A DNA stretch of 63,172 bases, counting the filler, from an uncultured bacterium (GTDB taxonomy: Bacteria > DAOPZR01), in assembly GCA_964637655.1 (NCBI GenBank). It is 10 parts of 10 records of this genome, joined end to end, with 100 filler letters (N's around TTAATTAATTAA, not from the genome) between each part and the next. Parts side by side here need not be neighbours in the genome. Positions count along the whole stretch, not along the records: positions 6,454 to 12,803 come from CAZWUZ010000227.1; 9 more parts are not named here. One strand, 5' to 3'. The translations under genes were made by a program, and so were the position numbers. Positions 143 through 59,889 of the stretch are shown here, piece by piece. The notes beneath the pieces are model-generated. The model ran no database searches. It was not told the origin of the DNA and saw nothing but the letters and a program-made list of their open reading frames with translations. Positions within the stretch are counted from its first letter, which is position 1. Every line of letters starts with the position of its first letter.

Positions 143-979
143 TCAAAGCACTCGGTCAGTTCCGCACCCGCCGTCGTATACAGCCGTCGCCTTGAAGAAG
201 GTATAGCAGAAGACGCCGTCCGGACCGGCGGTGCGCTGCAGGTCGCGCAGCCCCGCATCGAAGGTTGCGGCATCGGTCAGACCGGCGGCCAGCGCGGGAG
301 CGCGCACGCCCGCGATCATGGCGGTGAAGGTTTTGCGCGTGAATCCCTCAACCAGCTGCGGCCGGCCGGGATCGGCATAGACCTGACGCGGCGAGACGCG
401 CACCTGCCGGTAGCCCGCCTGCCGCAGCAGCGGAAAGAGTTCGCGTCCGATCAGCGCATTGCCGCCGGCACGGCGCTGCAGTTCAACCTGACAGTTGATC
501 GCCGTGCGCGCCGCCGCACTGTCGGGATGGAAATACGCCGAACCGTGATCCCCCTCGATAACGGTGATCGTCCCGCCGGGCTTGAGCATCCGCGCCAGCG
601 CCTGCAGGACGGCAACCGGGCGGGCGAGATGTTCCAGCACGAAACAGAGAAAGAGATGGTCGAACGATGCGGGCGGAAACGGCAGCGCGAAGATATCCGC
701 GCAGAGCAGATGCACATTCATCAGCCCGGCCGCAGCAACCGCCTGCCGCGCCGCCGCGACAGAGACGGCAGAAATGTCGACCGCGGTGATCAGCGCCCCG
801 GGACTGTGGCGGGCGAGGGTAACCGTCTGCGCCCCGACCCCGCAGCCCGCCTCCAGCACCCGCGGTCCGGGCGCATAGCGCGTATCGCCGTGCAGCAGTT
901 CCAGCAGGGTCGCCGCCTGGTCCTGCAGGCGCGCGTTTTCGTGCCGGTCATAGCCGTGCACATACGTCGTTTCCGTCAT
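143..979 (-). CDS. Class I SAM-dependent methyltransferase
   Basis: Motif I VLEAGCGVG, acidic AVDIS, FPPASFDHL, LKPGG; ATG at 979 chosen (MTETTYVHGY). Confidence 0.9.
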   Translation of the reverse strand: MTETTYVHGYDRHENARLQDQAATLLELLHGDTRYAPGPRVLEAGCGVGAQTVTLARHSPGALITAVDISAVSVAAARQAVAAAGLMNVHLLCADIFALPFPPASFDHLFLCFVLEHLARPVAVLQALARMLKPGGTITVIEGDHGSAYFHPDSAAARTAINCQVELQRRAGGNALIGRELFPLLRQAGYRQVRVSPRQVYADPGRPQLVEGFTRKTFTAMIAGVRAPALAAGLTDAATFDAGLRDLQRTAGPDGVFCYTFFKATAVYDGGCGTDRVL

Positions 980-1298
980 ACGGTTGTCTCCCGGCACCGC
1001 AGGCGCAGCAGGCGATTGCCGCCGCGCTGAAATTCGTACTCCACCGGTTCCAGCGCGGCGGTATATCCGGCCTGTTCGAGCAGCGGCAGCACTGTCGGCA
1101 GATGCCGCGACGGTCGTGCCCCCAGTTCGAGCAGCGGAAAGACGCGCACTTCGCGCGCCACCCGCAGGAGTTCCGTCAGCGCCGCGACGTGAAACCCGGC
1201 CGTCACCCGTGCCGGTCGGCGTCGCTCAATGCAAACATGGCGCAGTATTCGTCGTACGCACGCCCCCACGGCACGATGTCGGCCAGGGAAAAACTCAT
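976..1298 (-). pseudogene. Internally deleted, frameshifted SAM-dependent methyltransferase
   Basis: ATG 1298 gives MSFSLADIVPWGRAYDEYCAMFALSDADRHG* (stop 1203-1205); another frame continues FHVAALTELLRVAREVRVFPLL...YEFQRGGN. These match the two ends of one family; the SAM-binding middle is missing. Confidence 0.75.
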
Positions 1299-1317
1299 CG
1301 CCCCGCGCCCCACTATG

Positions 1318-3261
1318 CTACCGGGCGCGGGCGGACCAGCGGCGCGCAACGATCACCCCGACCCACAGGCAGTAGCAGGTCAGCACCATGATGACGAGGT
1401 CGGCAATGAGCAGCGGCATGCTCTCGGCCGGGTGGTGCAGGTACTCACGGAGCAGCATCAACAAACTGGCGAACGTGGTGACGAGCATGAGCAGGCCGGG
1501 CACGAGCGCAAAGCGCAGCGGCTTGCGCTGGCGGCGCAGCCAGAGTGCGGCCAGCAGCAGGATCAGCGCGGCCAGCAGCTGGTTGGCGGTGGCGAAGATG
1601 CCCCACAGCGCCTTGACCCCGCCGGTCAGCGCAAAGACCAGCATCAGCGCCACGGCCAGCCCGGAATTGAACCAGTAGTGGCGCACCAGGCCGGCAAACG
1701 CGCGGATGGCCGCGCTCATCGCGCCGCGCGGTGCAGACACTTCGTCCGGGGCTGACTCGGCATCAAGCGAGAGCGTCAGACCGCCGGTGGCGGCCGGCAT
1801 GGACACGGCCGCGCCGCGGGCCGGGAGCAGCGCCGGCGCATCCACATAACCGGCAAACATCGTGCGCCACGCCTCCTCGAGCAGGTAGCGGGTCAGGCGC
1901 ACGACGGTGTCGAGCGTGGTGATGATAAAACCCTCGAGCATGATCATCCCCGCCAGCGCCCCGGCGGCAATCGGCAGGCCGAACGCGTTCTTCGCCGCCA
2001 CGCCCACGGCCATGGCAAACCCGAGCACGGGATTCGACGCGCGTTCGAGATGCAGCAGCGCCTTGGGATGCACATAGGCGAAATAGTTTTCCCGGCTGCT
2101 CCCGGCGAGCAGGATGCAGATGACCACCACGGCGAGAAAGACCTCGAGCAGCATCCCCCCGTAGCAGACCGTACGCCCCGCGCTCTCCTTGTTCAACTGT
2201 TTGACCGTCGTCCCCGCCGCGAACATCCCGTGGAACCCGCTCACCGCGCCGCAGGCGATGGTTATCATCAGTGTCGGCCAGAGCCAGCCGAGCGCGGTTG
2301 TTCCCCCGTCGATATTGACCGCCTGCAGTCCGTCCGCCACGCTGCTGCCGCCGTGCCAGCCGCCGGCCAGCAGGATGAGCAGCATCAGCCCCAGCCCGAG
2401 ATAGAGAATGTGCACGTTGATAAAATCGCGGCTCTGCAGAAAGACCCAGACCGGCACCCCGGCGGCAACGAGCACATAGATGCTCAGCAGGTAGCGCCAC
2501 AGGTCGCCGCCGCTGCAGGCGAAACCACCGACCTGCACATGGTCGGCAAACGCCACCGGATGATAGATGCCGATGACAATGCTCGCGGCACAGATGCCCA
2601 GCGCCAGCAGCGAACAGATCCAGACCGGCACCCCCTTTTTGATGTACATCCAGCCAAGCAGCGGCGCCATGATGGTAATGACGATAACGCTGGTCGAGGC
2701 GATGCCGCCAATGACCACCTGCGGCCCCTGCGGCGTGGCCACGACACGAAAGAGCGTCTGGTCAGCCGACAGGTCGAGATGCTCTACCGGGAGGCGGCTG
2801 GTCAGCGCCTGCGCGGAGAGGTTGAGAAACGTCGCGCAGACGAGCACCGACATCATCACCAGCAGGAAGGTGAGTACGAGAAAGACGCGGCGTCCCATGA
2901 AGCGGCGGGCGATGGTGGCGATCGACACACCCCGCTCGCGCAATGACATGTGGATGGCAAGGTAATCGTGCACGCTGCCGATGAGGAGGCCCGCCCCGAG
3001 CACCCCGAGGCGCGCCGGTACCCAGCCATAGACGATGGCGATAACCGGCCCGACAATCGGTCCGGCCCCGGCAATGGAGGAAAAATGGTGGGCGAAAACG
3101 ACGGGGGTCGGGGTCGGCACGAAATCGCTGCCGTCGCTGCGCATCACTGCCGGCGTGGCGCGTGTATCGTTCTCACCCAGCAAACGGGCAAGGTGACGCC
3201 CGTGCAGGCGGTAGGCGAGCACGAGCAGCAGCAGGGTCCCGAGCATGATCAGCAACGGCAT
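1318..3261 (-). CDS. cstA: Carbon starvation protein A (CstA) family transporter
   Basis: HHFSSIAGAGPIVGP, ITIACGAVSGFH, YGGMLLE, LWGIFATANQLLA motifs; many TM segments; GGAGG RBS before ATG 3261. Confidence 0.92.
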   Translation of the reverse strand: MPLLIMLGTLLLLVLAYRLHGRHLARLLGENDTRATPAVMRSDGSDFVPTPTPVVFAHHFSSIAGAGPIVGPVIAIVYGWVPARLGVLGAGLLIGSVHDYLAIHMSLRERGVSIATIARRFMGRRVFLVLTFLLVMMSVLVCATFLNLSAQALTSRLPVEHLDLSADQTLFRVVATPQGPQVVIGGIASTSVIVITIMAPLLGWMYIKKGVPVWICSLLALGICAASIVIGIYHPVAFADHVQVGGFACSGGDLWRYLLSIYVLVAAGVPVWVFLQSRDFINVHILYLGLGLMLLILLAGGWHGGSSVADGLQAVNIDGGTTALGWLWPTLMITIACGAVSGFHGMFAAGTTVKQLNKESAGRTVCYGGMLLEVFLAVVVICILLAGSSRENYFAYVHPKALLHLERASNPVLGFAMAVGVAAKNAFGLPIAAGALAGMIMLEGFIITTLDTVVRLTRYLLEEAWRTMFAGYVDAPALLPARGAAVSMPAATGGLTLSLDAESAPDEVSAPRGAMSAAIRAFAGLVRHYWFNSGLAVALMLVFALTGGVKALWGIFATANQLLAALILLLAALWLRRQRKPLRFALVPGLLMLVTTFASLLMLLREYLHHPAESMPLLIADLVIMVLTCYCLWVGVIVARRWSARAR

Positions 3262-6353: not shown

Positions 6354-6453
6354 NNNNNNNNNNNNNNNNNNNNNNNNNNNNNNNNNNNNNNNNNNNNTTA
6401 ATTAATTAANNNNNNNNNNNNNNNNNNNNNNNNNNNNNNNNNNNNNNNNNNNN
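6354..6453. other. Artificial contig linker; same at 12804-12903, 19234-19333, 25621-25720, 31964-32063, 38283-38382, 44581-44680, 50827-50926, 57011-57110
   Basis: Identical 100-bp N/TTAATTAATTAA/N blocks with stops in all six frames; genes are cut at many of them. Confidence 0.99.
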
Positions 6454-7825
6454 AGCGCACCAGAAAACCCGTTGCTTCGTCGCCCGCGAATTTTTGCTTG
6501 CCCGCCGCGGCGGCAAAAATTCCCGTCAACCATTCGTAGGTCGGCTGGTTATACCAAGCCGCCATCAACACCGGCGGCAGGGACTCGAGGCCGGGTTCAC
6601 CAGACGTAAGCATCAGGCAGCGAATCATCTCGCCACCGGCAGGCGTGAGTGGAATCTTGCAGGCAAACTGAACGATCCGTGCCAGATTGGCGGGGTTCTT
6701 CTCCATCAGGTAGAGCAGTTTGACCGAATCGTAATCCTGCCGGGTCAGCAATTCCAGTTTGACCGCCGCCCATACCAGTTCGAACCGTCCGGGATTGGCA
6801 AAGGCAGCGACGCGACAGCGCTCCCGCAACGCTTCCATATTCGCCGCTGCCGGTACGGCAAAATCAGCGTTTCGTTCATCAAGATGAAGGCCGGCCATTT
6901 CCTGGTTGATTTCCTCTTCGATGCCGGGCGGGCTGGCCGGAATGAGTTCGGGATACAGGCGTGCTTGCGGACCCAATCCGCTGCGTATCTTCTCCTGCAT
7001 TATCCCCAGTTGTCCCTCCGGCAGGGCGGCCAGCAATTCCAATATCAGGCAGGGCCGCTCCTGCAACGACTGTTCCCACCGCATCCGCGACAGATTCCGC
7101 GTCCCGTCGGGTTCCGCTACGGTCTGCGACCACTCCGGCCGGGAGCGCATTTCGCGAAAATAAATAAACCGCAAAAGCGGGTTGGACGAATTCCCGGCGT
7201 CTTCCACCCGTTCCTCGCCCCCGGCATCCCAGGCGCCAAAGATTCGATGGGGACGGAAATCAATCGAATCCTCGAGAAAACCACGCCAGGAAAGATTCCC
7301 GGGTTGCGCTTGCAGATATTGCTGCGCCTGGCGCCGGCCCTCATCTTCAAGTTCCCTGATCCGTCTCTCGGCAATCGCAGCCGGAGTCGCTTCGCCGGAT
7401 GCTTCTGGCGGGCTGACCGCGTCGGGAACGGGGAAATTGCCATCGGTCAGCAGGCGCGCGGTGCGGCTGACCACGCTGTCCGGGTCGTCCAGCCAATGGA
7501 CGATCAGCTGCTTTTCTTCCGCCGTCAGGGAGAAATCGCATGCCGGCGACGTCCTGGCCGCAAAAACCCCGGCTTGGCAATATAAAATCATCCAGCGCGG
7601 ATCATCCGCCGCCAGCATCTGCTGTTTCAGCCGGTTCACCGTGTCCTGGTTGAGAGAAATATCCGGCGGATTTTGCTCGTAGGCAAATGTGCGTTGAGGA
7701 TAGAATATCCGGTTCAACCACACCCCCCCCGAACGGGCGAAAAATATCGCCACCAGCAGGAGCAGTGCCGGAAACATCACGATGCCGGCCGGATGTCTGA
7801 TCCCCGCAATCCTGATATTCAGCAC
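6454..7825 (-). CDS. Hypothetical membrane-anchored, probably helical protein (3' partial)
   Basis: Long ORF running into the gap; N-terminal hydrophobic stretch IVMFPALLLLVAIFF. Confidence 0.65.
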
Positions 7826-7950
7826 AACCGGTCGCGCCGCCCGCGGGAGTTTTTTCGTTTCGCCATGGCCTGTCCCATTCCATTCATCAGTTGACGGTAT
7901 TGTATCATCACGGCCGGAATCAGTCGACCGCCGGCATCGGTTGGCACGGT

Positions 7951-10443
7951 CTATTCCGGCCGGAAACTGGTGGCGGTTTGCGTTGGCACGCCCGCGGTGT
8001 CAGTGCCGCCGACGATAAACACCTCATTGCCCAAGGTCACCGCCGACAGTTGCGCCCGCGGCGCGGGCATCCGCGAAATCACAGTCCACTGGTTCTGGTC
8101 CGGCTCATACCTTTCCACCGTGTCCAGCAGTTTTTCCGATTCTCCCCAGCCGCCAAACACGTATATCCTGCCATTGAACACCACCGCTCCCTGGGTGAAT
8201 CCGCCGCGGCGCTGTTGCAGGGGCGCCATCATTTCCCAGCGATCAGCCTGCGGATCGTAGCGTTCGACTGAATCAAGATAGCCCGTCCCGGAATTCTTTC
8301 CGCCAATGACGTAGATTTTTCCGTTCAAGGATACCGCAGCGGCCTCATGCCGCGGAATCAATAGCGGTGCAGCGATCCGCCACGTCCCGCTGCTCAGGGT
8401 ATATGCCTCAACCAGGCCCGGGGTCGGGTTCGCCTGCCCGGCGCAGGTGCCGCCGATTACATAGATATCATCGTTCACCGCGGCCACCGTGAAATTTTCG
8501 CGCTCGCGCGTCAGGCGCGTAAGTTTGCGGCTTCTTTCCGGCCGGTGCGCCACTTCACCTGACAGGCCTGGCACATATTCAATAATGTCATTCTGCCGGT
8601 TTCCCTGGGCATTGCTGCCACCGACAAAATACAGTTTCCCGTCAACCACCACCGGCAGGGCGCCGACCCGACAATCATTCCCCTCCAGAAGCAGATCGGA
8701 ATCAACCTGCCAGCGTCGGGTGCCGGGATCGTACCATTCGATATCCGCCAACAGCGAGCGGGCATCATCACGCGCGCCCCTGTTTCCTCCCCATTGGTAT
8801 GAAAGGCAATAACCGCCGAATACCAGCAGTTTGCCTTCCAGCACTGCCGCCGCCACGCCCGCCCGGGGCCAATGCAATATTTTTCTGCGCGTCCAGCGCG
8901 CATCATTCGCCGGCAATTCCACCTGTCGGTTGGTTGGTTGCGACGCCACCGGGACGCGCGCCACCGGGGCCGGGGCGGGGCGCAGCAGGTAATAGAGGCC
9001 AAACACCGCCAGCAGGACCGGAGCGGCCAGTTTGAGCACCGCCAGCAGACGTTTTCCCATCCGCCGGCCGCCCACCGGCAACACGCCCAGCACGGACGTT
9101 TCCATCTTCGCCCGCCGCTGGCGCGCCAGCAGCAGGTCCGCGTTGTGCCGCATCTCCACGCTCAGCACCTCCCGCGACTTGAACTCCTGCTGCGCCAGTT
9201 TCACCACCTGCTCCGACTCGCCCGCCTCATTATCCAACTGTTCCGCCCGGTCTTTTGCCTCCAGCTTGGCAGCGAGATGCCGGCGCATCTGGCCTTCGTC
9301 ATTCGCTGTGTGCGCCTCTTCCGCCGCTTTTTCCCATTCCCGCATACTCGCCCGCGCTTCGTCCGCCCGCGCACGCACCCGGTTTTGCAGCAGCGTCGCC
9401 TCCTCCAGCCGCCGCCGTGCTTTTCCTGTCTCCTGCTCCGCCGCGGCGATTTCGTCGCGTATCCGCAGCGCGATCAGCTCCGTCCGGCCAAACGCCTCCA
9501 GCCACTGGTAACGATACCAGCTCGTCAGCCGCGTCCACGCCCGCTTCCAGCCCGGCACCCGGTGACGCCCGAGATCATGGTCGATCGGTTCATATACCGC
9601 TGCAAACTCCAGCGGAATATCCTCGCCTCGTTCCCATCTTTCGATATCCGCGAAAACCGCCTGGCAATCCGCGTAGCGGTTCGCCGGCGCACACGCCAGC
9701 AGGCGCGCCAGCATCCCGTCCGCCTGCGGCGGCAAACCCGCGACCAGTTTCGACGCCAGCGGATAGGTCCCGCACTTGTGCGCCTTGAGCAGTGCCAGCG
9801 GGGTCGCCCCCGCGAACGGGAAGCAGCCCGTCAGCATCCGGTACAGCACCACGCCCGCCGCGTACAGGTCGGATTGCCGGGACGCGCTGCCGCCCTGCCC
9901 CAGCTCGGGCGCCAGATATTCCAGCGTGCCCAATATCTCACTCGACCGGGTGAGCGTCACCTCACCCTCCACGATCCGCGCCAGGCCGAAATCCGCCAGT
10001 TTCACCGTATCCGTCGCCGTTTCAATCAGAATATTGCCCGGTTTGAGGTCGCGATGGATGATCCTCTGCTCATGCGCCATGCCCAAACTGGCGAGAATCT
10101 GTTTGAAATAGCACAGCGTTTTATCAATCGGCAAAGGCCGTTGCAGAAGATCGCGCAGCGCGCATCCGGGCACATATTCCATCGCCAGGTAGTAATATCC
10201 GGCCACCGCCCCCACATCGTAAATCGCCACAATATTCGGGTGGCGCAGCCGCGCCACCGCGCGCGCTTCGCGCTCGAAGCGCGCCACCGCGACCGGCTGC
10301 TCCGCCAGTTGCGGCCACAGAACTTTCAGCGCCACCTCACGGTCGAGGCGGGTGTCGCGGGCGCGATACACCTTGCCCATCGCCCCGCTGCCGAGTTCCG
10401 CTAACAACTCGTAATGTCCGATCCGGTTTTTGTTTCCACTCAC
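7951..10443 (-). CDS. Hanks-type Ser/Thr kinase - PspA/IM30-like coiled coil - TM - Kelch propeller
   Basis: GSGAMGKVY, VALK, HRDLKPGN, DFGLAR, APE; coiled coil ~9091-9549; TM LAAPVLLAVFGLYYLL; Kelch repeats IYVIGG...VERYDP...W. Confidence 0.92.
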   Translation of the reverse strand: MSGNKNRIGHYELLAELGSGAMGKVYRARDTRLDREVALKVLWPQLAEQPVAVARFEREARAVARLRHPNIVAIYDVGAVAGYYYLAMEYVPGCALRDLLQRPLPIDKTLCYFKQILASLGMAHEQRIIHRDLKPGNILIETATDTVKLADFGLARIVEGEVTLTRSSEILGTLEYLAPELGQGGSASRQSDLYAAGVVLYRMLTGCFPFAGATPLALLKAHKCGTYPLASKLVAGLPPQADGMLARLLACAPANRYADCQAVFADIERWERGEDIPLEFAAVYEPIDHDLGRHRVPGWKRAWTRLTSWYRYQWLEAFGRTELIALRIRDEIAAAEQETGKARRRLEEATLLQNRVRARADEARASMREWEKAAEEAHTANDEGQMRRHLAAKLEAKDRAEQLDNEAGESEQVVKLAQQEFKSREVLSVEMRHNADLLLARQRRAKMETSVLGVLPVGGRRMGKRLLAVLKLAAPVLLAVFGLYYLLRPAPAPVARVPVASQPTNRQVELPANDARWTRRKILHWPRAGVAAAVLEGKLLVFGGYCLSYQWGGNRGARDDARSLLADIEWYDPGTRRWQVDSDLLLEGNDCRVGALPVVVDGKLYFVGGSNAQGNRQNDIIEYVPGLSGEVAHRPERSRKLTRLTRERENFTVAAVNDDIYVIGGTCAGQANPTPGLVEAYTLSSGTWRIAAPLLIPRHEAAAVSLNGKIYVIGGKNSGTGYLDSVERYDPQADRWEMMAPLQQRRGGFTQGAVVFNGRIYVFGGWGESEKLLDTVERYEPDQNQWTVISRMPAPRAQLSAVTLGNEVFIVGGTDTAGVPTQTATSFRPE

Positions 10444-12803
10444 AGGCTTCTTACCCTTTCAAGCACGCTGCCCAAGAGACCGGCTTGGTATGCACTATTC
10501 CGCTCCTGAACGAGCGGTATTTCATTGGAACCATCAATCAGACTGATAAAGTTGCCCGCTTCTGCTGAACAATCATACTTGCCTGCTGGCGTAACCACAG
10601 CCCAATTGTTCTGCGGCAAAAATATCACTGTGGCTATCAGTCGTCCGGACAGCAAGTCCCAAATACAAATCGTACCATCTTCGCTGGCAGAAAAAAGATA
10701 ATCCCCGGTTTCACTCATCGCAAGCGAATTTATCCTGCCCGTATGACCGCGCAGTGTTCTTGTTACATTCAATTTGTCGGGATCCCATATTTTTATCACT
10801 CCGTCGTTACTTCCCGTAACGACAATCCAGCGATGCCCGATAAATTCGACAGCGGTAATCATGTCGTCATGCTCGGTGAAAACGCCTGTTTGTTTGGTGC
10901 CATTATTGAGAACAAGGTATACATAAGCACGAATTATTTTACCATCTGCGGTTCTTGGCGAGTCATTTCCCGCCGCAATTACCAGGCGTCGGCTTGTACT
11001 TTGAAATGCTGATATTCCGGTATATGGGGCATTGACCAATACCAACTGGTCATTGATAAATGCGCTTGTGTCCCGAGTCGTATCGCCAATGGCGATAAGG
11101 CGACCCATCATGTCGATGTGCGTTGTAATAATGATGTTGCCACGCGGGTCATGGAAACTAGCCAGTAGCTTGTCAGAATTATATTCAAACACGTTGGTAA
11201 TGTTGTTTGTCGACCGGGTGACCATACCACTACCATGTGCGGCACCAAAACTTCGATGAAGCGAACCAAAGGAAAACGCCACTATATCGCCTTCGTTCCT
11301 GTAAAACGACCGTTGCCGAATATCTTCTTGTGTATGATTTCGATTGTTAGCATCATCATACGCCACAGCCCAGACAGGTCGAATTCTATCTGGAGTATTC
11401 TTATTAAAGTCATGAAACAGACTTTCCATATTACTAAATAGACCCAAACCCCTGAGCGTGCCATCGGCTAACCCGGCCATTAGAAGTCGATCTCTGCCAA
11501 TGGCAATCGCCTTGACGACTGTGAATGTGCCCGTGAAATTCCGTTGTATTTCATGGCGGGGAGATGATGAAGTTCGTGTAGTTACTGATACCGCCGGTCT
11601 TTCCGGAAGTGGATACCTGTGCTCCGCCCACCACCATCCACCCACAACAACCGCCCCCAGCGGCCCAAACAATACTAAAGTTGCCATCATCCGCTCTGCC
11701 AACCGCCGTTTATTTGCCGGCAAGAGACCCAAAACCGACATTTCTATCTTGAGACGCCGGCGACGCGCCATGAGCAAGTCCGCATTATACCGCAATTCCT
11801 GGCTAGTGGCCGCCTGTTCCTCGAACTGGCGGCGCGCTAAATCCACAACTTTTTCCGACTCAGCCGCCTCCTTCTCCAAGTCTTCTGCCCGTTCCTTTTC
11901 CTCCGATTTCACCACCAGGCACTCGCGCACCTTTTGTTCGTCATTTGCTTCATGCGCCTTCTCCACATCTGTTTCGCATTCTCGCAGTGCCACCCGACAC
12001 GCATCTGCTTTCGCTCGCACCCGGTTCCGCAGTACGGTCGCCTCTTCCAGCCGGCGTCGTGCTGTTCCCAGGTTCTGTTCCGCCGCTGTCACCTCGTTCC
12101 GCAACCGGATTGCGGTCAATTCAGTTCGGTCGAATACTTCCAGCCACTGGTATCGGACCCGGGACGTTACCAAAGACCACGTTCGTTTCCATTGCGGAAT
12201 CCGATGTCGCTCAAGTTGGTGATCAATCGGCTCGTATGGCGTCGCTAACTCCTGCGAAATCGACTTTCCCCTTTCCCAACGTTCGATATCCGCGAGAACT
12301 GACTGACAGTCCGCATACCGGTTCGCGGGCTCACACGCCAGCAATCGCGCCAACACCGCATCCGCCTGCTGCGGCAGTTTCGGTACAATCGTCGTCGCCA
12401 GTGGATAGGTTCCGCACTCATGCGCTTCCAGTATTGCCGCTGAAGTCGCGCCCGCAAAGGGTAGTCGTCCTGTCAGTAAGCGGAACAGGACCACCCCTGC
12501 CGCGTATAGGTCGGATTGCCGGGAAGCACTCTCGCCCCGTGTCAGTTCTGGTGCCATGTACTCAATCGTGCCGAGCATTTCGCCTGATTGCGTAACCGAG
12601 TTTTCTTCTTCGATGATCCGCGCCAAGCCGAAATCAGCCAGTTTTACCGTATCAGTCGCTGACTCGATCAGGATATTCCCCGGTTTTAGATCACGATGGA
12701 TAACACCCAACTCGTGTGCTGCACCCAATCCGGCCAGAATCTGCTTGAAATAACGCAGGGCTTTATCGATCGGCAAAGGCTGTTTTAGCCGTTCCCGCAG
12801 CGA
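10440..12803 (-). CDS. Hanks-type Ser/Thr kinase - PspA/IM30-like coiled coil - TM - WD40 propeller (5' partial)
   Basis: HRDLKPGN, DFGLAR, APE; closely paralogous to the downstream kinase; WD40 motifs TGSNDGVIKIWD, GHTGRINSL, SASEDGTICIWD; stop overlaps the next GTG. Confidence 0.9.
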   Translation of the reverse strand, partial: SLRERLKQPLPIDKALRYFKQILAGLGAAHELGVIHRDLKPGNILIESATDTVKLADFGLARIIEEENSVTQSGEMLGTIEYMAPELTRGESASRQSDLYAAGVVLFRLLTGRLPFAGATSAAILEAHECGTYPLATTIVPKLPQQADAVLARLLACEPANRYADCQSVLADIERWERGKSISQELATPYEPIDHQLERHRIPQWKRTWSLVTSRVRYQWLEVFDRTELTAIRLRNEVTAAEQNLGTARRRLEEATVLRNRVRAKADACRVALRECETDVEKAHEANDEQKVRECLVVKSEEKERAEDLEKEAAESEKVVDLARRQFEEQAATSQELRYNADLLMARRRRLKIEMSVLGLLPANKRRLAERMMATLVLFGPLGAVVVGGWWWAEHRYPLPERPAVSVTTRTSSSPRHEIQRNFTGTFTVVKAIAIGRDRLLMAGLADGTLRGLGLFSNMESLFHDFNKNTPDRIRPVWAVAYDDANNRNHTQEDIRQRSFYRNEGDIVAFSFGSLHRSFGAAHGSGMVTRSTNNITNVFEYNSDKLLASFHDPRGNIIITTHIDMMGRLIAIGDTTRDTSAFINDQLVLVNAPYTGISAFQSTSRRLVIAAGNDSPRTADGKIIRAYVYLVLNNGTKQTGVFTEHDDMITAVEFIGHRWIVVTGSNDGVIKIWDPDKLNVTRTLRGHTGRINSLAMSETGDYLFSASEDGTICIWDLLSGRLIATVIFLPQNNWAVVTPAGKYDCSAEAGNFISLIDGSNEIPLVQERNSAYQAGLLGSVLERVRSL

Positions 12804-12928
12804 NNNNNNNNNNNNNNNNNNNNNNNNNNNNNNNNNNNNNNNNNNNNTTAATTAATTAANNNNNNNNNNNNNNNNNNNNNNNNNNNNNNNNNNNNNNNNN
12901 NNNTACCGTCACCGTCCGCAGCATCGCC

Positions 12929-22095: not shown

Positions 22096-22596
22096 GTGAC
22101 GCAGCAAATGACCGCGGCCCAGCAGGCGGAATACCTGCACCTCTGCTACTCGCGCGTCGACGGGCTCTGGTTCCTCAAGGTCGAGGAGCAGCTCGGCTTC
22201 GACGCGGCGCTCGAACTCGACGTCGCGGTCTGGCAGGTGCTGCCGAAACTGCAGGCACGCGCGCTCAAACGCCTGCTCGGTCTGAACGACGGGAGGGAGG
22301 CGTTGCGCCTCGCGCTGCAGGAGAAACTGACGCTCGACGGGTTTGCCTTTACCCTGGCGGATACTGCCGACGGGCTCTGTCTCACGGTGCAGGCCTGCCC
22401 GTGGCTGGCATTGCTGCAGAAATCGGGTCGTGAACACGTCGCCGACCGCATCGGCAATGCCATCTGCACGACGGAATATGGCGTTTTTGCGCGCGAGTTC
22501 GGGCTGCGCCTGCAGGAAAACAGCGCGCGCCTCTGCGGCGGCGGCGATGCCTGCACGTTCATCTTTGCGCCCGCGGAAAGGACCACCGACGCATGA
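22096..22596 (+). CDS. DUF6125-like protein (V4R-related, Cys-containing)
   Basis: VDGLWFLKVEEQLGFDAALELD.AVW, CPW, C...C..C; AGGAGG RBS. Confidence 0.75.
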   Translation: MTQQMTAAQQAEYLHLCYSRVDGLWFLKVEEQLGFDAALELDVAVWQVLPKLQARALKRLLGLNDGREALRLALQEKLTLDGFAFTLADTADGLCLTVQACPWLALLQKSGREHVADRIGNAICTTEYGVFAREFGLRLQENSARLCGGGDACTFIFAPAERTTDA

Positions 22597-23819
22597 AAGA
22601 CCAGCCCGCCCCGAAAGGGCTGCACCTGCATATCGGCATCTTCGGCCGGCGCAATGCCGGCAAGTCATCGCTGCTCAACGCGCTCACCCGCCAGCAGGTG
22701 GCCATCGTCTCCCCCGTGGCGGGAACGACCACCGATCCCGTCGAGAAACCGATGGAGATGCTGCCGCTCGGCCCGGTCATCTTTATCGACACCGCCGGGG
22801 TGGATGACGAGGGGGCACTCGGCGCGCAGCGTATTGCCAAGACACGTCTTATCCTCGACCGCACCGATATCGGTATCATCGTCGCCGCCGCGGGACTATG
22901 GGGTGAGTACGAAGAGCAACTCCTCGCGGAACTGCAGCGGCGCGGTACACCGGTGGTCGTGGCGGCTAACCAGCGCGACCGCGGGATGCTGCCGGAAGAA
23001 ACGCGTGCACGCCTGCAGGCGGCGAATGTTGCCGTGGTGCCTACCAGTGCCGACCGCGGCGACAATATCGATGCGTTGCGCGCGGCGCTGCATGCCGTCG
23101 CTCCGGCGGCCGCCGGGCCGCCGCTGCTGGGCGATCTCGTGCCGCGCGGCGAGGTGGCGGTGCTCGTCGTTCCCATCGACCTCGAGGCGCCCGCCGGGCG
23201 CATCATCCTGCCGCAGGTGCAGGCGATCCGCGATCTGCTCGACCACGACTGCTGGTGCGTGGTGGTCAAGGAGCATCAACTCGCGGACGCGCTGGCGCGA
23301 TTCAACCGGCCGCCCGCACTCGTGGTCACTGATTCACAGGCCTTTGCCCAGGTGGCGGCGGTGGTGCCAACGAGCGTGCCGCTCACCTCGTTCTCCATCC
23401 TCATGGCGCGTCTCAAGGGTGACCTGACGGAATTCGCGCGCGGCGCGCGGGCGCTCGACACGCTGCGCGCGGGCGACCGCGTCATCATCGCCGAGGCCTG
23501 CACGCATCATCCCATCGGCGAGGATATCGGGCGGGTCAAACTGCCCGCCTGGTTGCGGCAGCATGTTGCCGGCGACCTCGACATCAGCACGGTGGCCGGG
23601 CGTGATTTTCCCGCCGAACTTACCGGGGTGAAAGTGGTCATCAACTGCGGGGCCTGCATGTGGAACCGCCGCGAAATGCTGACACGGATGCGGGTCTGTC
23701 GCGCCGCCGGCGTGCCCGTCACCAACTACGGGATTGCCATCGCCCGCGTGCTGGGCATTATCGACCGCGCGCTGGCGCCCTTCCCGGCCGCGCTGGCGGC
23801 CTACCGGGGTGAGGCGTGA
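22593..23819 (+). CDS. hydF: [FeFe]-hydrogenase H-cluster maturation GTPase HydF
   Basis: GRRNAGKSS, GTTTDPV, DTAG, GRIILPQVQ, VTDSQ, EACTHH, NCGACM. Confidence 0.96.
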   Translation: MKDQPAPKGLHLHIGIFGRRNAGKSSLLNALTRQQVAIVSPVAGTTTDPVEKPMEMLPLGPVIFIDTAGVDDEGALGAQRIAKTRLILDRTDIGIIVAAAGLWGEYEEQLLAELQRRGTPVVVAANQRDRGMLPEETRARLQAANVAVVPTSADRGDNIDALRAALHAVAPAAAGPPLLGDLVPRGEVAVLVVPIDLEAPAGRIILPQVQAIRDLLDHDCWCVVVKEHQLADALARFNRPPALVVTDSQAFAQVAAVVPTSVPLTSFSILMARLKGDLTEFARGARALDTLRAGDRVIIAEACTHHPIGEDIGRVKLPAWLRQHVAGDLDISTVAGRDFPAELTGVKVVINCGACMWNRREMLTRMRVCRAAGVPVTNYGIAIARVLGIIDRALAPFPAALAAYRGEA

Positions 23820-32824: not shown

Positions 32825-34048
32825 TCAGTCGAAATGCGACGTGCCGATAAGGCCGCACCGCTCGCGGATGCCGAACCCGTCAGCGATAAGCTGTGACGCG
32901 GGCCGGATGTGCAGCGCGCCATAGCGCCGGTTGAGCCGCGCCGCGGTCTCGCCCAGCGCGTCCGCGCGTGCCGCCGCAGGGAGCAGGTGCCCCGGGCCGC
33001 GCCCGCGCTGCAGGTTGCTGACACTCACCCCGACCGCGCGCACCGCCTGCGGCGGCGGCAGATGGCGCTGCAGGATGCCCGCCGCGCGGCGGTAGATGCC
33101 CAGCCCGGTCCAGACCGCCTGCCGCGCCGTGCACTGCTGCCCCAGTCCGGTGAAATCACCGAAGCGCAGCCAGAGTGACACCGTCGTCCCGCTCACCCCG
33201 TATTTCTGCATGCGTGCCGCCACCATCTCGCAGAGCATGCGCAGAAACGCGCTGATGACCGCCGGGTCGGCGGTATCCGCCGGCAGCGTGTGCGAGTGCC
33301 CCACCGACTTGATCTCGCGCTCATGGTCGAAACGCCGCACCGGGTCGTCATCCTCGCCACGGCCCATCGCTTTGAGCCGGCGCCCGATAACGCCGAAGCG
33401 GTCCGTCAGCAGTCCCGCGTCGGCATTCCCGAGGTCAGCCGCCGTGCGGATGCTCAGGCGCGCCAGTTCCGCCGCGGTCTTCTTCCCCACGCCCCACAAC
33501 TCGCCGACCGGCAGTCGCGCGAAAAGCGCGGGAATATCCTCCGGTCTGATGCGGTGCAACCCGTCGGGCTTGTGCGTGTCGCTGGCCAGTTTGGCGAGGA
33601 GTTTGTTCGGGGCCAGCCCGGCGCTGCAGGTCAGCCCGAGTTCTGCGCGGATGGCGGCTTTGGCCGTGCGCGCCACTGCTTCCGGATCGGCATGGCCCGT
33701 CAGGTCGACGAAGCACTCGTCAATGGAATAGACCTCGACCAGGTCGGTATGCCGCAGCAGGATGGCATGCAGTTGTCGCGCGGTGTCGACGTACTTGTCG
33801 GGATTGCCGACCACAATGCGCACCTGCGGGCAGCGCCGCCGCGCTTCGGGGACCGTGCAGCCGGTTTTGATGCCGAACTTCCGCGCCTCGTAGGAGGCGG
33901 TGGTCACGATGGTGCGCGCGTAATCGCTCTCCGCTGACGCCTCGCCGCAGACGACCACGGGCCTGCCGCGCAGCGCCGGGTCGCACGCCTGCTCCACCGC
34001 CGCGAAGTAGGCGTCCATATCAAGGTGCAGGACGACGCGTCCACTCAT
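32825..34048 (-). CDS. dinB: DNA polymerase IV (Y family)
   Basis: HLDMDAYFA, ASYEARKFG, SIDE, NKLLAKLAS, LWGVGKKT. Confidence 0.95.
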   Translation of the reverse strand: MSGRVVLHLDMDAYFAAVEQACDPALRGRPVVVCGEASAESDYARTIVTTASYEARKFGIKTGCTVPEARRRCPQVRIVVGNPDKYVDTARQLHAILLRHTDLVEVYSIDECFVDLTGHADPEAVARTAKAAIRAELGLTCSAGLAPNKLLAKLASDTHKPDGLHRIRPEDIPALFARLPVGELWGVGKKTAAELARLSIRTAADLGNADAGLLTDRFGVIGRRLKAMGRGEDDDPVRRFDHEREIKSVGHSHTLPADTADPAVISAFLRMLCEMVAARMQKYGVSGTTVSLWLRFGDFTGLGQQCTARQAVWTGLGIYRRAAGILQRHLPPPQAVRAVGVSVSNLQRGRGPGHLLPAAARADALGETAARLNRRYGALHIRPASQLIADGFGIRERCGLIGTSHFD

Positions 34049-34293
34049 GACGACGGGATGGCTTTCTCCAACCGCCACTGCAGCGTCTGCCGGTTGAAAC
34101 TCAATTCGTAGAGGTTGCCCCCCGCGCTGACCGCGAAATGGGCGAGCAGCGCCTCACCCATGCGGCTCTGCCAGCGGTAGGTCACTGTCGTGATATCGTA
34201 GCGCCGCTGCTGCCAGTCGAACCAGCGCGGCTGCACCGCCGCCCCGCTGAAAACCGCTCCCACCCTGACCGTCTCGCCGATATCCGTCGCCAT
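34045..34293 (-). CDS. Small beta-rich protein coupled to dinB (DUF6504-like)
   Basis: PRWFDWQQRRY..VTYRW..HFAVS..YELSF..WRL; ATGA overlap with dinB. Confidence 0.75.
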   Translation of the reverse strand: MATDIGETVRVGAVFSGAAVQPRWFDWQQRRYDITTVTYRWQSRMGEALLAHFAVSAGGNLYELSFNRQTLQWRLEKAIPSS

Positions 34294-34433
34294 CGTCCGC
34301 TCCGTCCTGCCATGCTTCCCATCCCCTCCCCCGTGGACTCCTGAAAATGCGTTATCACGGCAGGCAGGTTTTCCGGGTTTTGCTCCCACCCGGCCGCCCC
34401 TTCCCGCGTTTTCTCCGCCCCGCCCTGTCACAG

Positions 34434-34459
34434 AAAACGGGGACTGTCCCCATTTATTT
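34434..34459. repeat. GGGGACTGTCCCC palindromic REP; second copy at 56774-56796
   Basis: Near-identical AAA(T/C)GGGGACTGTCCCCATTTATTT on two contigs, each at a gene 3' end. Confidence 0.75.
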
Positions 34460-35056
34460 TCTGCCGTCGGGGCGGCAGCAGCGCGCCACCCCCGCCAGCA
34501 CCCCGAGAATATGCGCCTCACGCGTGATCAGCGGCGGGTAGGCGGGATGTTCCGCCACCAGGTGGATGCCGTCCGCCCGCAGGAAATAGCGCTTGAGCAC
34601 CGCCTCGTCGTCGAGGCGCGCCGCGACGATGTCACCGTTGCGCGCGGTCACCTGCGCGCGGATGAAGACAATGTCGCCGTCGTTGATCCCCGCTCCTGTC
34701 ATGCTCTCCCCCTTCACCCGCAGCGCGAATAGGTCGCTGCCGGTCGGGAGGAGGTCGGCGGGCGTAAAGCGCCCTTCGAGGTTTTCCGTCGCTGTGGCGG
34801 GAAGGCCCGCGCTGATGCGGCTCACCAGCGGGACGCCGAGCAGCCCGGGACGCAGAAAGATGCCGCGTGCGGTTCCCTGCCGCAGCGTCACCAGGCCCCG
34901 GTCGGCAAGCTTGCGCAGGTGGTAACGCACCGTCCAGGTCGAGGCCAGGCGGGCGCGCTGCGCCAGTTCGCGCAGCGTCGGGGGGAGCGTCTCCTCCTGC
35001 CACCAGTCGCGCAGAGCCATAAGTACCTTCTCTTCCGCTTTCCGGTCCCTGACCAT
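34454..35056 (-). CDS. lexA: SOS repressor LexA
   Basis: wHTH PPTLRELA..TVRYHLRKLADRG; Ala-Gly cleavage site ISAG; catalytic GESM and LKR; next to dinB. Confidence 0.93.
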   Translation of the reverse strand: MVRDRKAEEKVLMALRDWWQEETLPPTLRELAQRARLASTWTVRYHLRKLADRGLVTLRQGTARGIFLRPGLLGVPLVSRISAGLPATATENLEGRFTPADLLPTGSDLFALRVKGESMTGAGINDGDIVFIRAQVTARNGDIVAARLDDEAVLKRYFLRADGIHLVAEHPAYPPLITREAHILGVLAGVARCCRPDGRK

Positions 35057-35143
35057 TATCGCCGTGTTGCTCCCCGTCAATAACGGACGGCATTCCGCGC
35101 GGCGCGGAGGGTTGCGCCACTGCGGAATCCCGTTCCACCGCCC

Positions 35144-35171
35144 ATTATAGCACAAATGTGCTACTTGTCAA
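35144..35171 (-). promoter_or_regulatory. lexA promoter containing palindromic operator TAGCAC-N4-GTGCTA (35148-35163)
   Basis: TTGACA-16-TATAAT; the palindrome fills the spacer and overlaps the -10. Confidence 0.75.
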
Positions 35172-57382: not shown

Positions 57383-58698
57383 AGCCGCTGCGTATCTTTG
57401 CTGTTTCTCTTGGCTGCCCGAAGAACGAGGCGGACCTGGAAATCGCCCTCGACCGCCTGACCGCGGCCGGCCACACAGTGGCTGCATCAGTGCGCTATGC
57501 CGATGCCATCATCGTCAATACCTGCGCGTTCACCGACGAGGCGCGCGCGGAGAGCAGTGCCGCGCTGGCAGACTGTGCCGCCGCGGCGAAACGCGGGGCG
57601 CTGGTGGTCGCGCTTGGCTGCCTGGCGCAGCGCGAACGTGAACAGTTGTACGCGCGCTATCCGTTTCTCGTCGCTGTCGCCGGGCCGGGTGAGGCGGCGC
57701 ATCTGCCGGCCATCATCGCGCGCGCGCGCGGCGGGGCGCGCCCCGTGCGCTGCGGCGGTATGACGACCGCGCCGCTGGCTTCCGCGCGCGTCAAACTCAC
57801 CCCCTCCCACTATGCCTGGCTGCGCATCGCCGAGGGGTGTGACAACCGCTGTCACTACTGCGTCATCCCCTCGCTGCGTGGACCGTTCCGCAGCCGTTCG
57901 GTCGCCGCCATTGCGCGTGAGGCGAAACAGCGCCTGCGCGCGGGGGCGAAGGAACTCATCCTCGTGGCGCAGGACACCACCCGCTATGGCAGCGACCTGC
58001 GCCCGCGCACGTCGCTGGCTGCCCTGCTGCGAATACTGGCCGGACTGGACGGGGAGTGCTGGCTGCGCGTGCTCTATGCGCATCCCGCGCAGGTGACAGA
58101 CGACTTCCTGCGCGCGCTGGCGGAACTGGCCCCGGTGGTCAAGTACCTCGATATCCCGCTGCAGCATGCGCATCCTGCCGTGCTCAAGGCGATGGGGCGT
58201 CCCGTCATTGACCACCGCGCGCTGGTCGCGCGTTTGCGTGACGCAGTCCCCGGCATCGCCCTGCGCACGACGCTGATGACCGGCTATCCCGGCGAAGGTG
58301 AAGAGGAATTCGCGGCGCTGCAGGAGTTCGTGCGCGATATGCGCTTCGACCGTCTCGGGCTTTTCTGTTTCCAGCCGCAGGCAGACACCCCGGCTTTCAA
58401 TCTGCGCGGCCATCTCGACCCCGAAATCAAGGAACAGCGCCGCCAGACGCTCTGGCAACTGCAGGAGGAAATCAGTGCCGCGCGCAATGCCGCGCTCGTC
58501 GGCACCGACGTGACGGTGCTTATCGACCGCGTAGAGGGGCATGGCGGCACCGGACGCACTGCTGCTGATGCGCCGGGCATCGACCAGACCGTGCAGGTGC
58601 GCGGCAAAGTGCGCCGCGGCACCTTCGCGCGCGTGCGCCTCACCGGCAGCCATGCCTTCTCACTGACCGGGAAATGCCTGCCGGAGAAAAAACGGTGA
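57379..58698 (+). CDS. rimO: Ribosomal protein S12 methylthiotransferase RimO
   Basis: SLGCPKN.D, NTCAF, GCL, IAEGCDNRCHYCVIP, AQDTTRYG, YLDIPLQH, TRAM domain with APGID. Confidence 0.9.
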   Translation: MKPLRIFAVSLGCPKNEADLEIALDRLTAAGHTVAASVRYADAIIVNTCAFTDEARAESSAALADCAAAAKRGALVVALGCLAQREREQLYARYPFLVAVAGPGEAAHLPAIIARARGGARPVRCGGMTTAPLASARVKLTPSHYAWLRIAEGCDNRCHYCVIPSLRGPFRSRSVAAIAREAKQRLRAGAKELILVAQDTTRYGSDLRPRTSLAALLRILAGLDGECWLRVLYAHPAQVTDDFLRALAELAPVVKYLDIPLQHAHPAVLKAMGRPVIDHRALVARLRDAVPGIALRTTLMTGYPGEGEEEFAALQEFVRDMRFDRLGLFCFQPQADTPAFNLRGHLDPEIKEQRRQTLWQLQEEISAARNAALVGTDVTVLIDRVEGHGGTGRTAADAPGIDQTVQVRGKVRRGTFARVRLTGSHAFSLTGKCLPEKKR

Positions 58699-59834
58699 AG
58701 GTGCTCTTTGCGGTGCATGAATTCCCGCCGCTGGGCGGTGGGGCCGGGGTCTGGATACGCACGCTCGCTGATGCGGTGGTTGCCGGCGGCGGCAGGGCGA
58801 AGGTGCTCACCCTTGGGCAGCCGGGCGTGGCGTATGCTGCGCTCCCCTATCCTGTCGAGGCGGTGCATAGCGGGCGGGCCTCAACGGCGTACGGTGATGC
58901 GTTCTCGCTGCTGCGCTATGCGCACAAACTGCGCGGTGTATTGCAACGTGAAACAGCGACTGGCGACTGGGACTGCGTCTATGCGCATTTTACGGTGCCC
59001 GCCGGCTGGGCTGCCGTCACGGCAGGATTGAACGTGCCGGTTATTGTCGACATTTCGGGTGCCGACATCTACGACCCTGAACGTTTCGCCCTTATCCGCC
59101 CGCTGCTCAATATGCTCAACCGGCAGGTGGTAAAAAAAGCAAGATTAGTCATTGCCCCGAGCAAGGACATGGCACAGCGTTGCCGGGCGCTGACGGGCGT
59201 CATGCCCGAAGTGGTCTATCGCGCGGTGGATACTGAGCGCTTCCATCCAGGGGCAGCCAACCCGCAACTGCTGCGCCATCTCGGTGTGCCTGAGGGGGCA
59301 AAGACCATTCTCACTGTCGGGCGTCTCGTCCCGCGCAAGAATCTTGCCTTCGCCATCGCGGTGACGGCGGAACTGGTCAAGCGCGGCGAACCGGTCTATC
59401 ACGTTATTGCCGGCGAGGGCCCCGAACGCCCCCGCCTCGAACGCCTCGTCGCCGCCTGCGGCCTGCAGGGAAGGGTCGTCTTCGCCGGGCGTGTCCCCGA
59501 TGCCGACCTCCCCGGTCTCGTCGCCGCCGCCAACCTCTTCCTGCTCACCTCGCACTACGAGGCGCTCGGCATCGTCCTGCTCGAGGCGCTCGCCGCCGGC
59601 ACCCCTGTCCTCGCCCCCGCCATCGGCGGCATAACCGAGATACTGGCTGGTGATGATGGCGCGATGATGCTGCAGCAACTTTCCGCAGCACCATCACGAT
59701 GGGCGGAACAAGTGACGAAACTGCTGGCAGTGGATATGCACACATGTCAGCAACGGGCGTCGCAATTTGGCGTTGCCGGGCAGGTGCATGGGTGGCGCAA
59801 CCGGATCTCGCTAACCTGCCGCATTCCGGAATAA
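58695..59834 (+). CDS. GT4 family glycosyltransferase
   Basis: EFPPLGGGA, VGRLVPRKN, EALGIVLLEALAAGTPV (EX7E). Confidence 0.93.
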   Translation: MKVLFAVHEFPPLGGGAGVWIRTLADAVVAGGGRAKVLTLGQPGVAYAALPYPVEAVHSGRASTAYGDAFSLLRYAHKLRGVLQRETATGDWDCVYAHFTVPAGWAAVTAGLNVPVIVDISGADIYDPERFALIRPLLNMLNRQVVKKARLVIAPSKDMAQRCRALTGVMPEVVYRAVDTERFHPGAANPQLLRHLGVPEGAKTILTVGRLVPRKNLAFAIAVTAELVKRGEPVYHVIAGEGPERPRLERLVAACGLQGRVVFAGRVPDADLPGLVAAANLFLLTSHYEALGIVLLEALAAGTPVLAPAIGGITEILAGDDGAMMLQQLSAAPSRWAEQVTKLLAVDMHTCQQRASQFGVAGQVHGWRNRISLTCRIPE

Positions 59835-59889
59835 CAACAGTTGAGGAATGAGGTTGTGCTACCGGCAACAAGCATGCTATAAGCAGCGT

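Follow-up and report, generated by a model that had tools for sequence, protein, structure and literature searches.

PspA, Vipp1 and ESCRT-III proteins are usually treated as stand-alone polymer-formers; can a domain of this kind be a built-in part of a receptor Ser/Thr kinase? The question is raised by a gene for a protein of 830 amino acids (aa), P0001, in a DNA stretch of 63,172 bases from an uncultured bacterium. This stretch, here called the window, consists of about ten contig pieces of ~6.3 kb joined by N spacers (window 6354-6453, 12804-12903 and eight more places, each with paired 44-N runs). Because the window is made of joined contigs, genes on its different pieces are not genome neighbours. 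The piece of interest (window 6454-12803; 6,350 nt) contains three minus-strand genes, namely that of the 830-aa protein, a tandem paralog upstream and a further open reading frame (ORF) downstream.

An earlier interpretation of this DNA, hereafter the sequence-only reading, had described the protein as a kinase followed by a PspA/Vipp1-like segment, a transmembrane (TM) helix and a propeller, an order that is borne out by Pfam and hydrophobicity. The 153 residues it quoted are the translation of window 9091-9549 on the minus strand and correspond to aa 299-451 of the ORF. The gene is composed as follows (AF2, AlphaFold2; pLDDT, predicted local distance difference test):

7951-10443, minus strand: receptor kinase gene, 830 aa (P0001), with Hanks kinase, PspA-like alpha0-alpha3, TM helix and Kelch propeller (ORF, translation, Pfam)
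9670-10413, minus strand: protein kinase domain, aa 11-258; Pkinase (PF00069) 167.4 bits, E 5.2e-49, cut-off 31.7
9550-9591, minus strand: linker EPIDH.L.RHR.P from kinase to alpha0, aa 285-298, conserved in both window paralogs and in relatives
9490-9549, minus strand: alpha0-like amphipathic helix, Trp/Arg-rich, aa 299-318; module 18-35 on PspA 3-20 (hhalign)
9307-9480, minus strand: alpha1 hairpin arm with conserved RRRLEEA.LL, aa 322-379; AF2 helix to segment residue 95 (pLDDT 90-96), aligned to PspA alpha1
9298-9306, minus strand: hairpin tip, aa 380-382 (A-N-D, before E-G); AF2 loop at segment residues 96-98, aligned to the PspA 'K-G/N-D-D/E' tip
9091-9297, minus strand: alpha2/3 arm, aa 383-451, ending in conserved R..ADLLLARRRRAKLE.S.LG; AF2 helix 99-167, aligned to PspA up to residue 149-154
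8983-9051, minus strand: single TM helix, aa 465-487, after basic GGRRMGKR; the top Kyte-Doolittle 19-mers start at aa 465-469
7999-8868, minus strand: extracytoplasmic Kelch beta-propeller, about aa 526-815; Kelch_1 (PF01344) 184.4 bits in six stretches, Kelch_6 131 bits

All catalytic motifs of the kinase are intact (GSGAMG at aa 18, VALK at 37, HRDLKP at 130, DFG at 151 and APE at 178), and by profile and motifs the protein is a Hanks-type Ser/Thr kinase. The TM helix is its only strongly hydrophobic stretch, and the flanking charges fit a topology with the N-terminus inside.

Relationship of the segment to PspA and IM30

Searched against Pfam, the 153-aa segment matched PspA_IM30 (PF04012) at E 3.8e-5 and 23.9 bits, collinearly from segment 30-153 to profile 28-151 of 220, with no other family below E 0.4. 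When the two window paralogs were combined into a profile, it found one match at E<=10 in the Protein Data Bank (PDB), a Vipp1/IM30 (E 1.7). The clear match came from a ten-sequence alignment of the module (A2), which we used as a family profile. Against 177,635 distinct PDB sequences, it returned 24 matches at E<=10, of which the best 13 are all Vipp1/PspA/IM30 proteins (E 1.4e-8 to 3.1e-5); an Asgard ESCRT-IIIB comes next (E 2.4e-3), and the other ten have E values of at least 0.044 (lamin, sorting nexin and others). A stand-alone PspA encoded in the genome of a relative is likewise recovered by this profile (E 6e-8). Aligned by hhalign with 56 stand-alone PspA proteins (97.1%, E 6.3e-11), module residues 18-164 correspond to PspA 3-149 over 147 columns with zero gaps, at an identity to PspA of ~20%. 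Together with the PDB search, this bears out the claim that the segment follows PspA/Vipp1 nearly gap-free.

Individually, PspA_IM30 was matched by eight of the ten A2 members (best E 1.1e-14), with no other family below E 0.009. At full length, P0011 reached 49.8 bits (residues 300-446 on profile 3-149), above the Pfam cut-off of 33.9 bits, and P0009, P0013, P0008, P0010 and P0006 reached 33.4, 32.8, 32.1, 32.0 and 19.9 bits, respectively. It is the ten-sequence family profile, not the single window protein, that gives the clear match and settles the homology to PspA: the segment aa 299-451 is a real, diverged and C-terminally truncated PspA/IM30 domain of the ESCRT-III superfamily, which comprises alpha0 to alpha3 and is devoid of alpha4/alpha5. 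This part of the interpretation, homology and architecture, is held with high confidence.

None of the alignments extends past position 143-155 of the profile or of PspA, which leaves PspA_IM30 ~151-220 (alpha4/alpha5) unmatched, and the TM helix starts 14 residues past the segment. What has been kept from PspA is alpha0, the E of the 'EDP' junction (invariant E38), the hairpin and the basic end of alpha3. Everything past PspA residue ~150, that is alpha4 and alpha5, is lost; the protein continues instead with 'S.LG.LP', then with basic residues and then with the TM helix. At 13 of the 39 positions that are at least 90% conserved in the PspA alignment, the module has the consensus residue in common with PspA. 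The nearest clusters in the ESM Atlas partly carry PspA_IM30, at scores of 0.77-0.80, a range also reached by shuffled proteins, and offer a lead at most.

Applied to A2, AF2 predicted two helices (segment residues 14-95 and 99-167) and a loop at 96-98, equivalent to aa 380-382, with a mean pLDDT of 86.4. Rather than the one long helix without hairpin that the sequence-only reading had named as a warning sign, the model is a confident hairpin (pLDDT 90-96) whose tip coincides with the PspA tip motif. Alignments and model also agree with its expectation of an amphipathic alpha0 at the proper place and of a K..L.AR..AAK-like stretch closing alpha3. Foldseek ranks 1-17 of the module model are all Vipp1/PspA, with the PI3K iSH2 domain and SMC arms following from rank 18 and an Asgard ESCRT-IIIB at rank 19; E. 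coli PspA(1-144) (PDB 4whe) superposes on the module with a root-mean-square deviation (rmsd) of 2.0 over 116 columns. Going by sequence, the alpha1-alpha2 hairpin core of the ESCRT-III superfamily is recognisable in the module. The predicted alpha0 has a hydrophobic moment of 0.437 and a net charge of +3, compared to 0.44-0.46 for alpha0 of host PspA and 0.433 for the 99th percentile of the protein, and the PspA_IM30 alignments of P0006, P0009, P0010 and P0011 begin at profile position 2-3, taking in alpha0. The module is thus predicted to start with an N-terminal amphipathic alpha0.

Geometry alone is not specific for PspA, as structural comparison ties the module with unrelated hairpins. 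This would suit a generic coiled-coil spacer or dimerisation stalk with a convergent likeness to PspA, caused by heptads and composition, and the same can be said of the window protein's score below the Pfam cut-off and of a tip that can shorten (see below). However, more than three orders of magnitude in E lie between the PspA/Vipp1 matches and every non-ESCRT coiled coil across the PDB, the 147 ungapped columns run from alpha0 to alpha3, P0011 passes the Pfam cut-off, and no other coiled-coil family came below E 0.009 for any of the ten members. The segment family scores far better against PspA than against generic coiled coils, the comparison that had been proposed as decisive. The coiled-coil alternative therefore appears largely refuted by the profile comparisons and is highly improbable.

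Family members, distribution and gene layout

A HMMER scan of 1.84 billion representative sequences yielded nine proteins at E<=0.001, eight of them genuine. The ninth, P0012, was discarded as a repetitive low-complexity sequence with four short matches. With the two window copies plus P0013 and L052, the family comprises 12 proteins. The kinase is present in 11/12; P0008 (230 aa; PspA_IM30 32.1 bits) consists of the PspA-like module and TM helix only, with no kinase and no outer domain, and represents either a half-PspA in its own right, anchored by the TM helix, or only a piece of a gene. The outer domain is a Kelch propeller in P0001, P0004, P0005 and P0007, WD40 in the window paralog, DUF1565/beta-helix in P0006 and P0009, FG-GAP in P0011 and P0013 and a weak Laminin_G_3 in L052, and none was detected in P0010. 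The PspA-like module is a fixed cytoplasmic juxtamembrane part: kinase, module and TM helix stay together and the outer domain is swapped.

Word-index searches found two and four family members only. Among the 50 kinase loci most similar to P0004 in species-representative genomes, the fused module occurs in one (L001), and among 60 relatives of G001, the genome that holds L052, the fused form was found in G001 itself only. In a scan of Joint Genome Institute (JGI) metagenomes with alignment A3, 267 stretches matched, none of them a relative. All family members come from uncultured material. The fusion of kinase and PspA module is rare, and the family is very small. P0011 and P0013 had already been tagged with PF00069 and PF04012 by the automatic annotation of the protein database.

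Invariant across A2 are W19, R27, Q29, E32 and E38, R61-L62-E64-L68 and residues from R148 to G169. They gather at the foot of the hairpin, close to the membrane, and the half towards the tip varies. In P0005 and P0007, 35 and 45 columns, respectively, are deleted, in both cases centred on the tip. The model of the P0007 module is nonetheless a hairpin, shortened to arms of 39 and 41 residues, with a distinct alpha0 and with its loop where the deletion joins. This natural variation supports the predicted hairpin independently.

The other features of the window contig are as follows:

10440-12803, minus strand: tandem paralog with kinase, PspA-like module, TM helix and WD40 propeller, cut inside the kinase domain by the contig end (ORF, Pfam)
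11733-12191, minus strand: PspA-like module of the paralog; PspA_IM30 E 0.0011, 19.0 bits, profile 3-149
6455-7825, minus strand: ORF downstream of the kinases, 457+ aa, cut by the other contig end, with an N-terminal hydrophobic stretch

The upstream paralog and the 830-aa gene overlap by 4 nt, in that GTGA contains the stop of the one and the GTG start of the other. The two paralogs are 75% identical in the kinase and 59% in the module, and their outer domains are unrelated. Guanine-cytosine content is much lower in the paralog (56% over kinase plus module, 47% over the WD40 part) than in the downstream 830-aa gene (64-66% and 61%). The ORF at 6455-7825 belongs to no Pfam family and has no match in G001.

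Other pieces of the window carry further genes:

58569-62310, plus strand: GT4 glycosyltransferase, then an 822-aa STT3/AglB-type oligosaccharyltransferase (STT3 73.6 bits; AglB core and L1 domains)
32828-35167, minus strand: LexA-like repressor (Peptidase_S24 and LexA_DNA_bind) adjoining a Y-family polymerase (IMS domains), a pairing typical of SOS mutagenesis
22434-23816, plus strand: HydF-type [FeFe]-hydrogenase maturation GTPase, a hint that the organism of that contig lives anaerobically

Candidate modes of action and stand-alone psp genes

How could a truncated PspA domain serve a receptor kinase? We propose that the TM helix would pin the end of alpha3 and alpha0 the start of alpha1, both at the membrane; with both ends of the hairpin pinned there, its Arg-rich base would rest on the inner leaflet. 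The module may then make side-by-side contacts of the PspA type with other copies, possibly with PspA itself, and these contacts would bring kinase domains together for trans-autophosphorylation. Kinase output would depend on the state of the membrane plus the ligand of the outer propeller. Counted for this mechanism are an alpha0 moment like that of host PspA, the invariant residues of the base and the intact kinase motifs. For the stand-alone protein, the available part of a study on IM30 describes alpha0-3 as binding phosphatidylglycerol (PG) liposomes with a dissociation constant (KD) of 2.2 uM, alpha4-6 being dispensable for binding (PMC12636044). We assign a probability of roughly 55% to the explanation as a whole, i.e. 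a truncated PspA domain in a receptor kinase family combined with a membrane-binding and clustering mechanism. The mechanistic part, in which membrane-bound hairpins cluster the kinases, is put forward tentatively and falls somewhat short of even odds.

Several points weigh against this explanation. The Pfam check of the segment ranked PspA_IM30 first, as anticipated, but the window protein alone stays under the cut-off of 33.9 bits in every form (21.0 bits for the whole protein, 23.9 for 153 aa, 25.1 for 172 aa). Its closest relatives score lower still, with 19.0 bits for the paralog, 16.1 for L052, 12.8 for P0004 and no match for P0005 and P0007, and, within the family, the subgroup around the window protein has diverged furthest from PspA_IM30. 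Among the Foldseek matches only one has E<=0.001; in the window model alpha0 continues into alpha1 with lower confidence (pLDDT 68-81); and the hairpin tip is deletable in 2/12 members. Alpha4 and alpha5 are the helices by which PspA polymers reach their neighbours; a module that has neither cannot be taken to polymerise as canonical PspA does. That it associates with itself, binds membranes or activates the kinase is a prediction.

Stand-alone PspA is found around the family. The genome G001 contains, besides the kinase ortholog L052 (74% identical), a gene for a PspF-like sigma-54 AAA+ activator (Sigma54_activat 197.7 bits) followed by a canonical pspA (142 bits):

L056 (G001 contig C106), 9458-11789: PspF-like activator, then pspA, then a small ORF cut by the contig end; upstream, genes for RtcB and a class A penicillin-binding protein

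In G001 the kinase and pspA are on separate contigs that share no overlapping sequence. A stand-alone PspA, P0015, 88% identical to that of G001, is encoded on an NCBI contig of 12,570 nt, and the kinases P0004/P0007 come from a contig of equal source and size. Likewise, P0019 (66% identical to G001 PspA) is encoded on a Logan contig of 23,488 nt, equal in source and size to that of P0011/P0013. In these two cases, pspA and family kinases appear to share a contig, as judged from matching source and size alone. Neither the 6,350-nt window contig nor the other window contigs carry a pspA, and no sigma-54 activator was found on the window contig. In a 1:1 complex prediction, the P0004 module and PspA P0015 obtained a score of 0.12 (mark 0.32), which counts neither for nor against binding. 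Separately, L055 (G052; 185-1941, minus strand) holds two tandem PspA/Vipp1-type genes (256 and 253 aa), one of which reaches 52.7 bits with the kinase-module profile, above the G001 PspA at 33.8 bits.

The apparent proximity of these genes bears on a different function of the module, that of a docking or nucleation site. It would be a membrane-fixed seed or cap for stand-alone PspA, and PspA or its regulators may be substrates of the kinase. In PspA/Vipp1 lattices, the hairpin receives the alpha5 of a neighbour; the module has kept the hairpin and is without alpha4/alpha5 of its own. The accessible part of a review likewise speaks of a 'conserved hairpin-H5 interface' (PMC7619361). The pspA genes P0015 and P0019 on contigs matching those of the kinases point the same way, as does the activator-pspA pair in the genome of L052. 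However, the linkage of pspA and kinase on one contig is deduced from source and size alone, the gene after pspA in G001 is the small ORF and not a kinase, with the G001 kinase on a separate contig, the tip is missing in P0005 and P0007, and the window is devoid of pspA. We regard docking as possible but rather doubtful. The sequence-only reading had envisaged a receptor that oligomerises through, or nucleates, PspA polymers: its PspA homology stood, whereas the link to polymers is conjectural: alpha4/alpha5 are absent, two relatives have lost the tip, and the one tie to PspA is the indirect one of pspA genes that seem to share contigs with the kinases.

It is also conceivable, though unlikely, that the module acts as half an ESCRT-III subunit set in the membrane, which could accept the alpha5 of stand-alone PspA and could not donate one. 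The kinase would then seed or cap a polymer of nearby-encoded PspA at the site where the propeller receives its signal, and would phosphorylate the polymer or a regulator. If true, this would amount to ligand-directed, phosphorylation-controlled membrane repair in a bacterium.

The hairpin of E. coli PspA(1-144) binds the AAA+ activator PspF, and the module, in its alpha0-alpha3 extent, equals this crystallised fragment (4whe; see the superposition above). It could thus be a regulator-binding domain that binds a PspF-like sigma-54 activator, holds it at the membrane or presents it to the kinase and so gives the receptor control of psp transcription. The PspF-like gene directly upstream of pspA in G001 would fit. 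Against this stand the lack of such an activator on the window contig and the conserved residues of the module, which are family-specific, as the agreement at 13/39 PspA-conserved positions indicates. We consider regulator binding quite improbable.

Comparison with known systems and biological meaning

Returning to the truncated PspA domain in a membrane-bound receptor kinase, its likeness to PspA/Vipp1 (IM30, PF04012) extends to the collinear, ungapped course from alpha0 to the end of alpha3, the tip at the G/N-D-E motif, the amphipathic N-terminal helix and the basic hairpin. It differs in lacking alpha4/alpha5, in being held by a TM helix where PspA is peripheral, and in forming one part of an 830-aa receptor kinase where PspA is a protein by itself. 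The natural module has the same extent as E. coli PspA(1-144) (4whe) and IM30 alpha0-3. These are laboratory truncations of stand-alone proteins, whereas the module is truncated naturally and fused on both sides. IM30 alpha0-3 is an autonomous membrane-binding unit according to the available part of PMC12636044.

With PknB-type receptor Ser/Thr kinases, the protein shares the common layout and an intact Hanks kinase; PknB_PASTA_kin scores 312.9 bits over the kinase part, below its cut-off of 450. PknB has an unstructured juxtamembrane linker, whereas the 830-aa protein has a folded PspA hairpin at this place and a Kelch propeller as sensor in place of PASTA repeats. Eukaryotic CHMP7, in which an ESCRT-III-type domain is joined to a membrane-targeting part, starts the assembly of ESCRT-III at a particular place. 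It offers an analogy for a nucleating role of the module, with no kinase, no TM helix, a full ESCRT-III domain and homology at the superfamily level only. In Actinobacteria, PspC is fused to histidine kinases, as stated in the accessible parts of two papers (PMC9239133, PMC11237479). There, too, a Psp domain is part of a membrane sensor kinase, although both the component (the sensor PspC versus the effector PspA) and the kinase class (histidine versus Ser/Thr) are different.

That PspA is normally stand-alone, as the sequence-only reading assumed, agrees with the literature, as far as the texts were available: among about 2,500 PspA homologs, >98% are single-domain, with NlpC/P60 and PspAA given as fusions (PMC11237479), and PspA proteins are described as having no room for extra domains (PMC9239133). 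The words 'kinase', 'fused' and 'transmembrane' are absent from the available part of a 2025 review (PMC7619361), and in a bacterial kinase atlas preprint 'PSPA' denotes a peptide array only. No fusion of PspA with a Ser/Thr kinase was found in the accessible text of this literature, the scope of which excluded supplementary tables, where rare architectures may be listed.

The natural truncation to alpha0-alpha3 represents a ready-made dissection of the PspA fold, in which one half is useful without polymerisation. The module is a candidate for a direct link of membrane state, or of the Psp system, to Ser/Thr phosphorylation. With outer domains as different as Kelch, WD40, beta-helix and FG-GAP swapped around it, the combination of kinase, PspA module and TM helix acts as one reusable signalling cassette.

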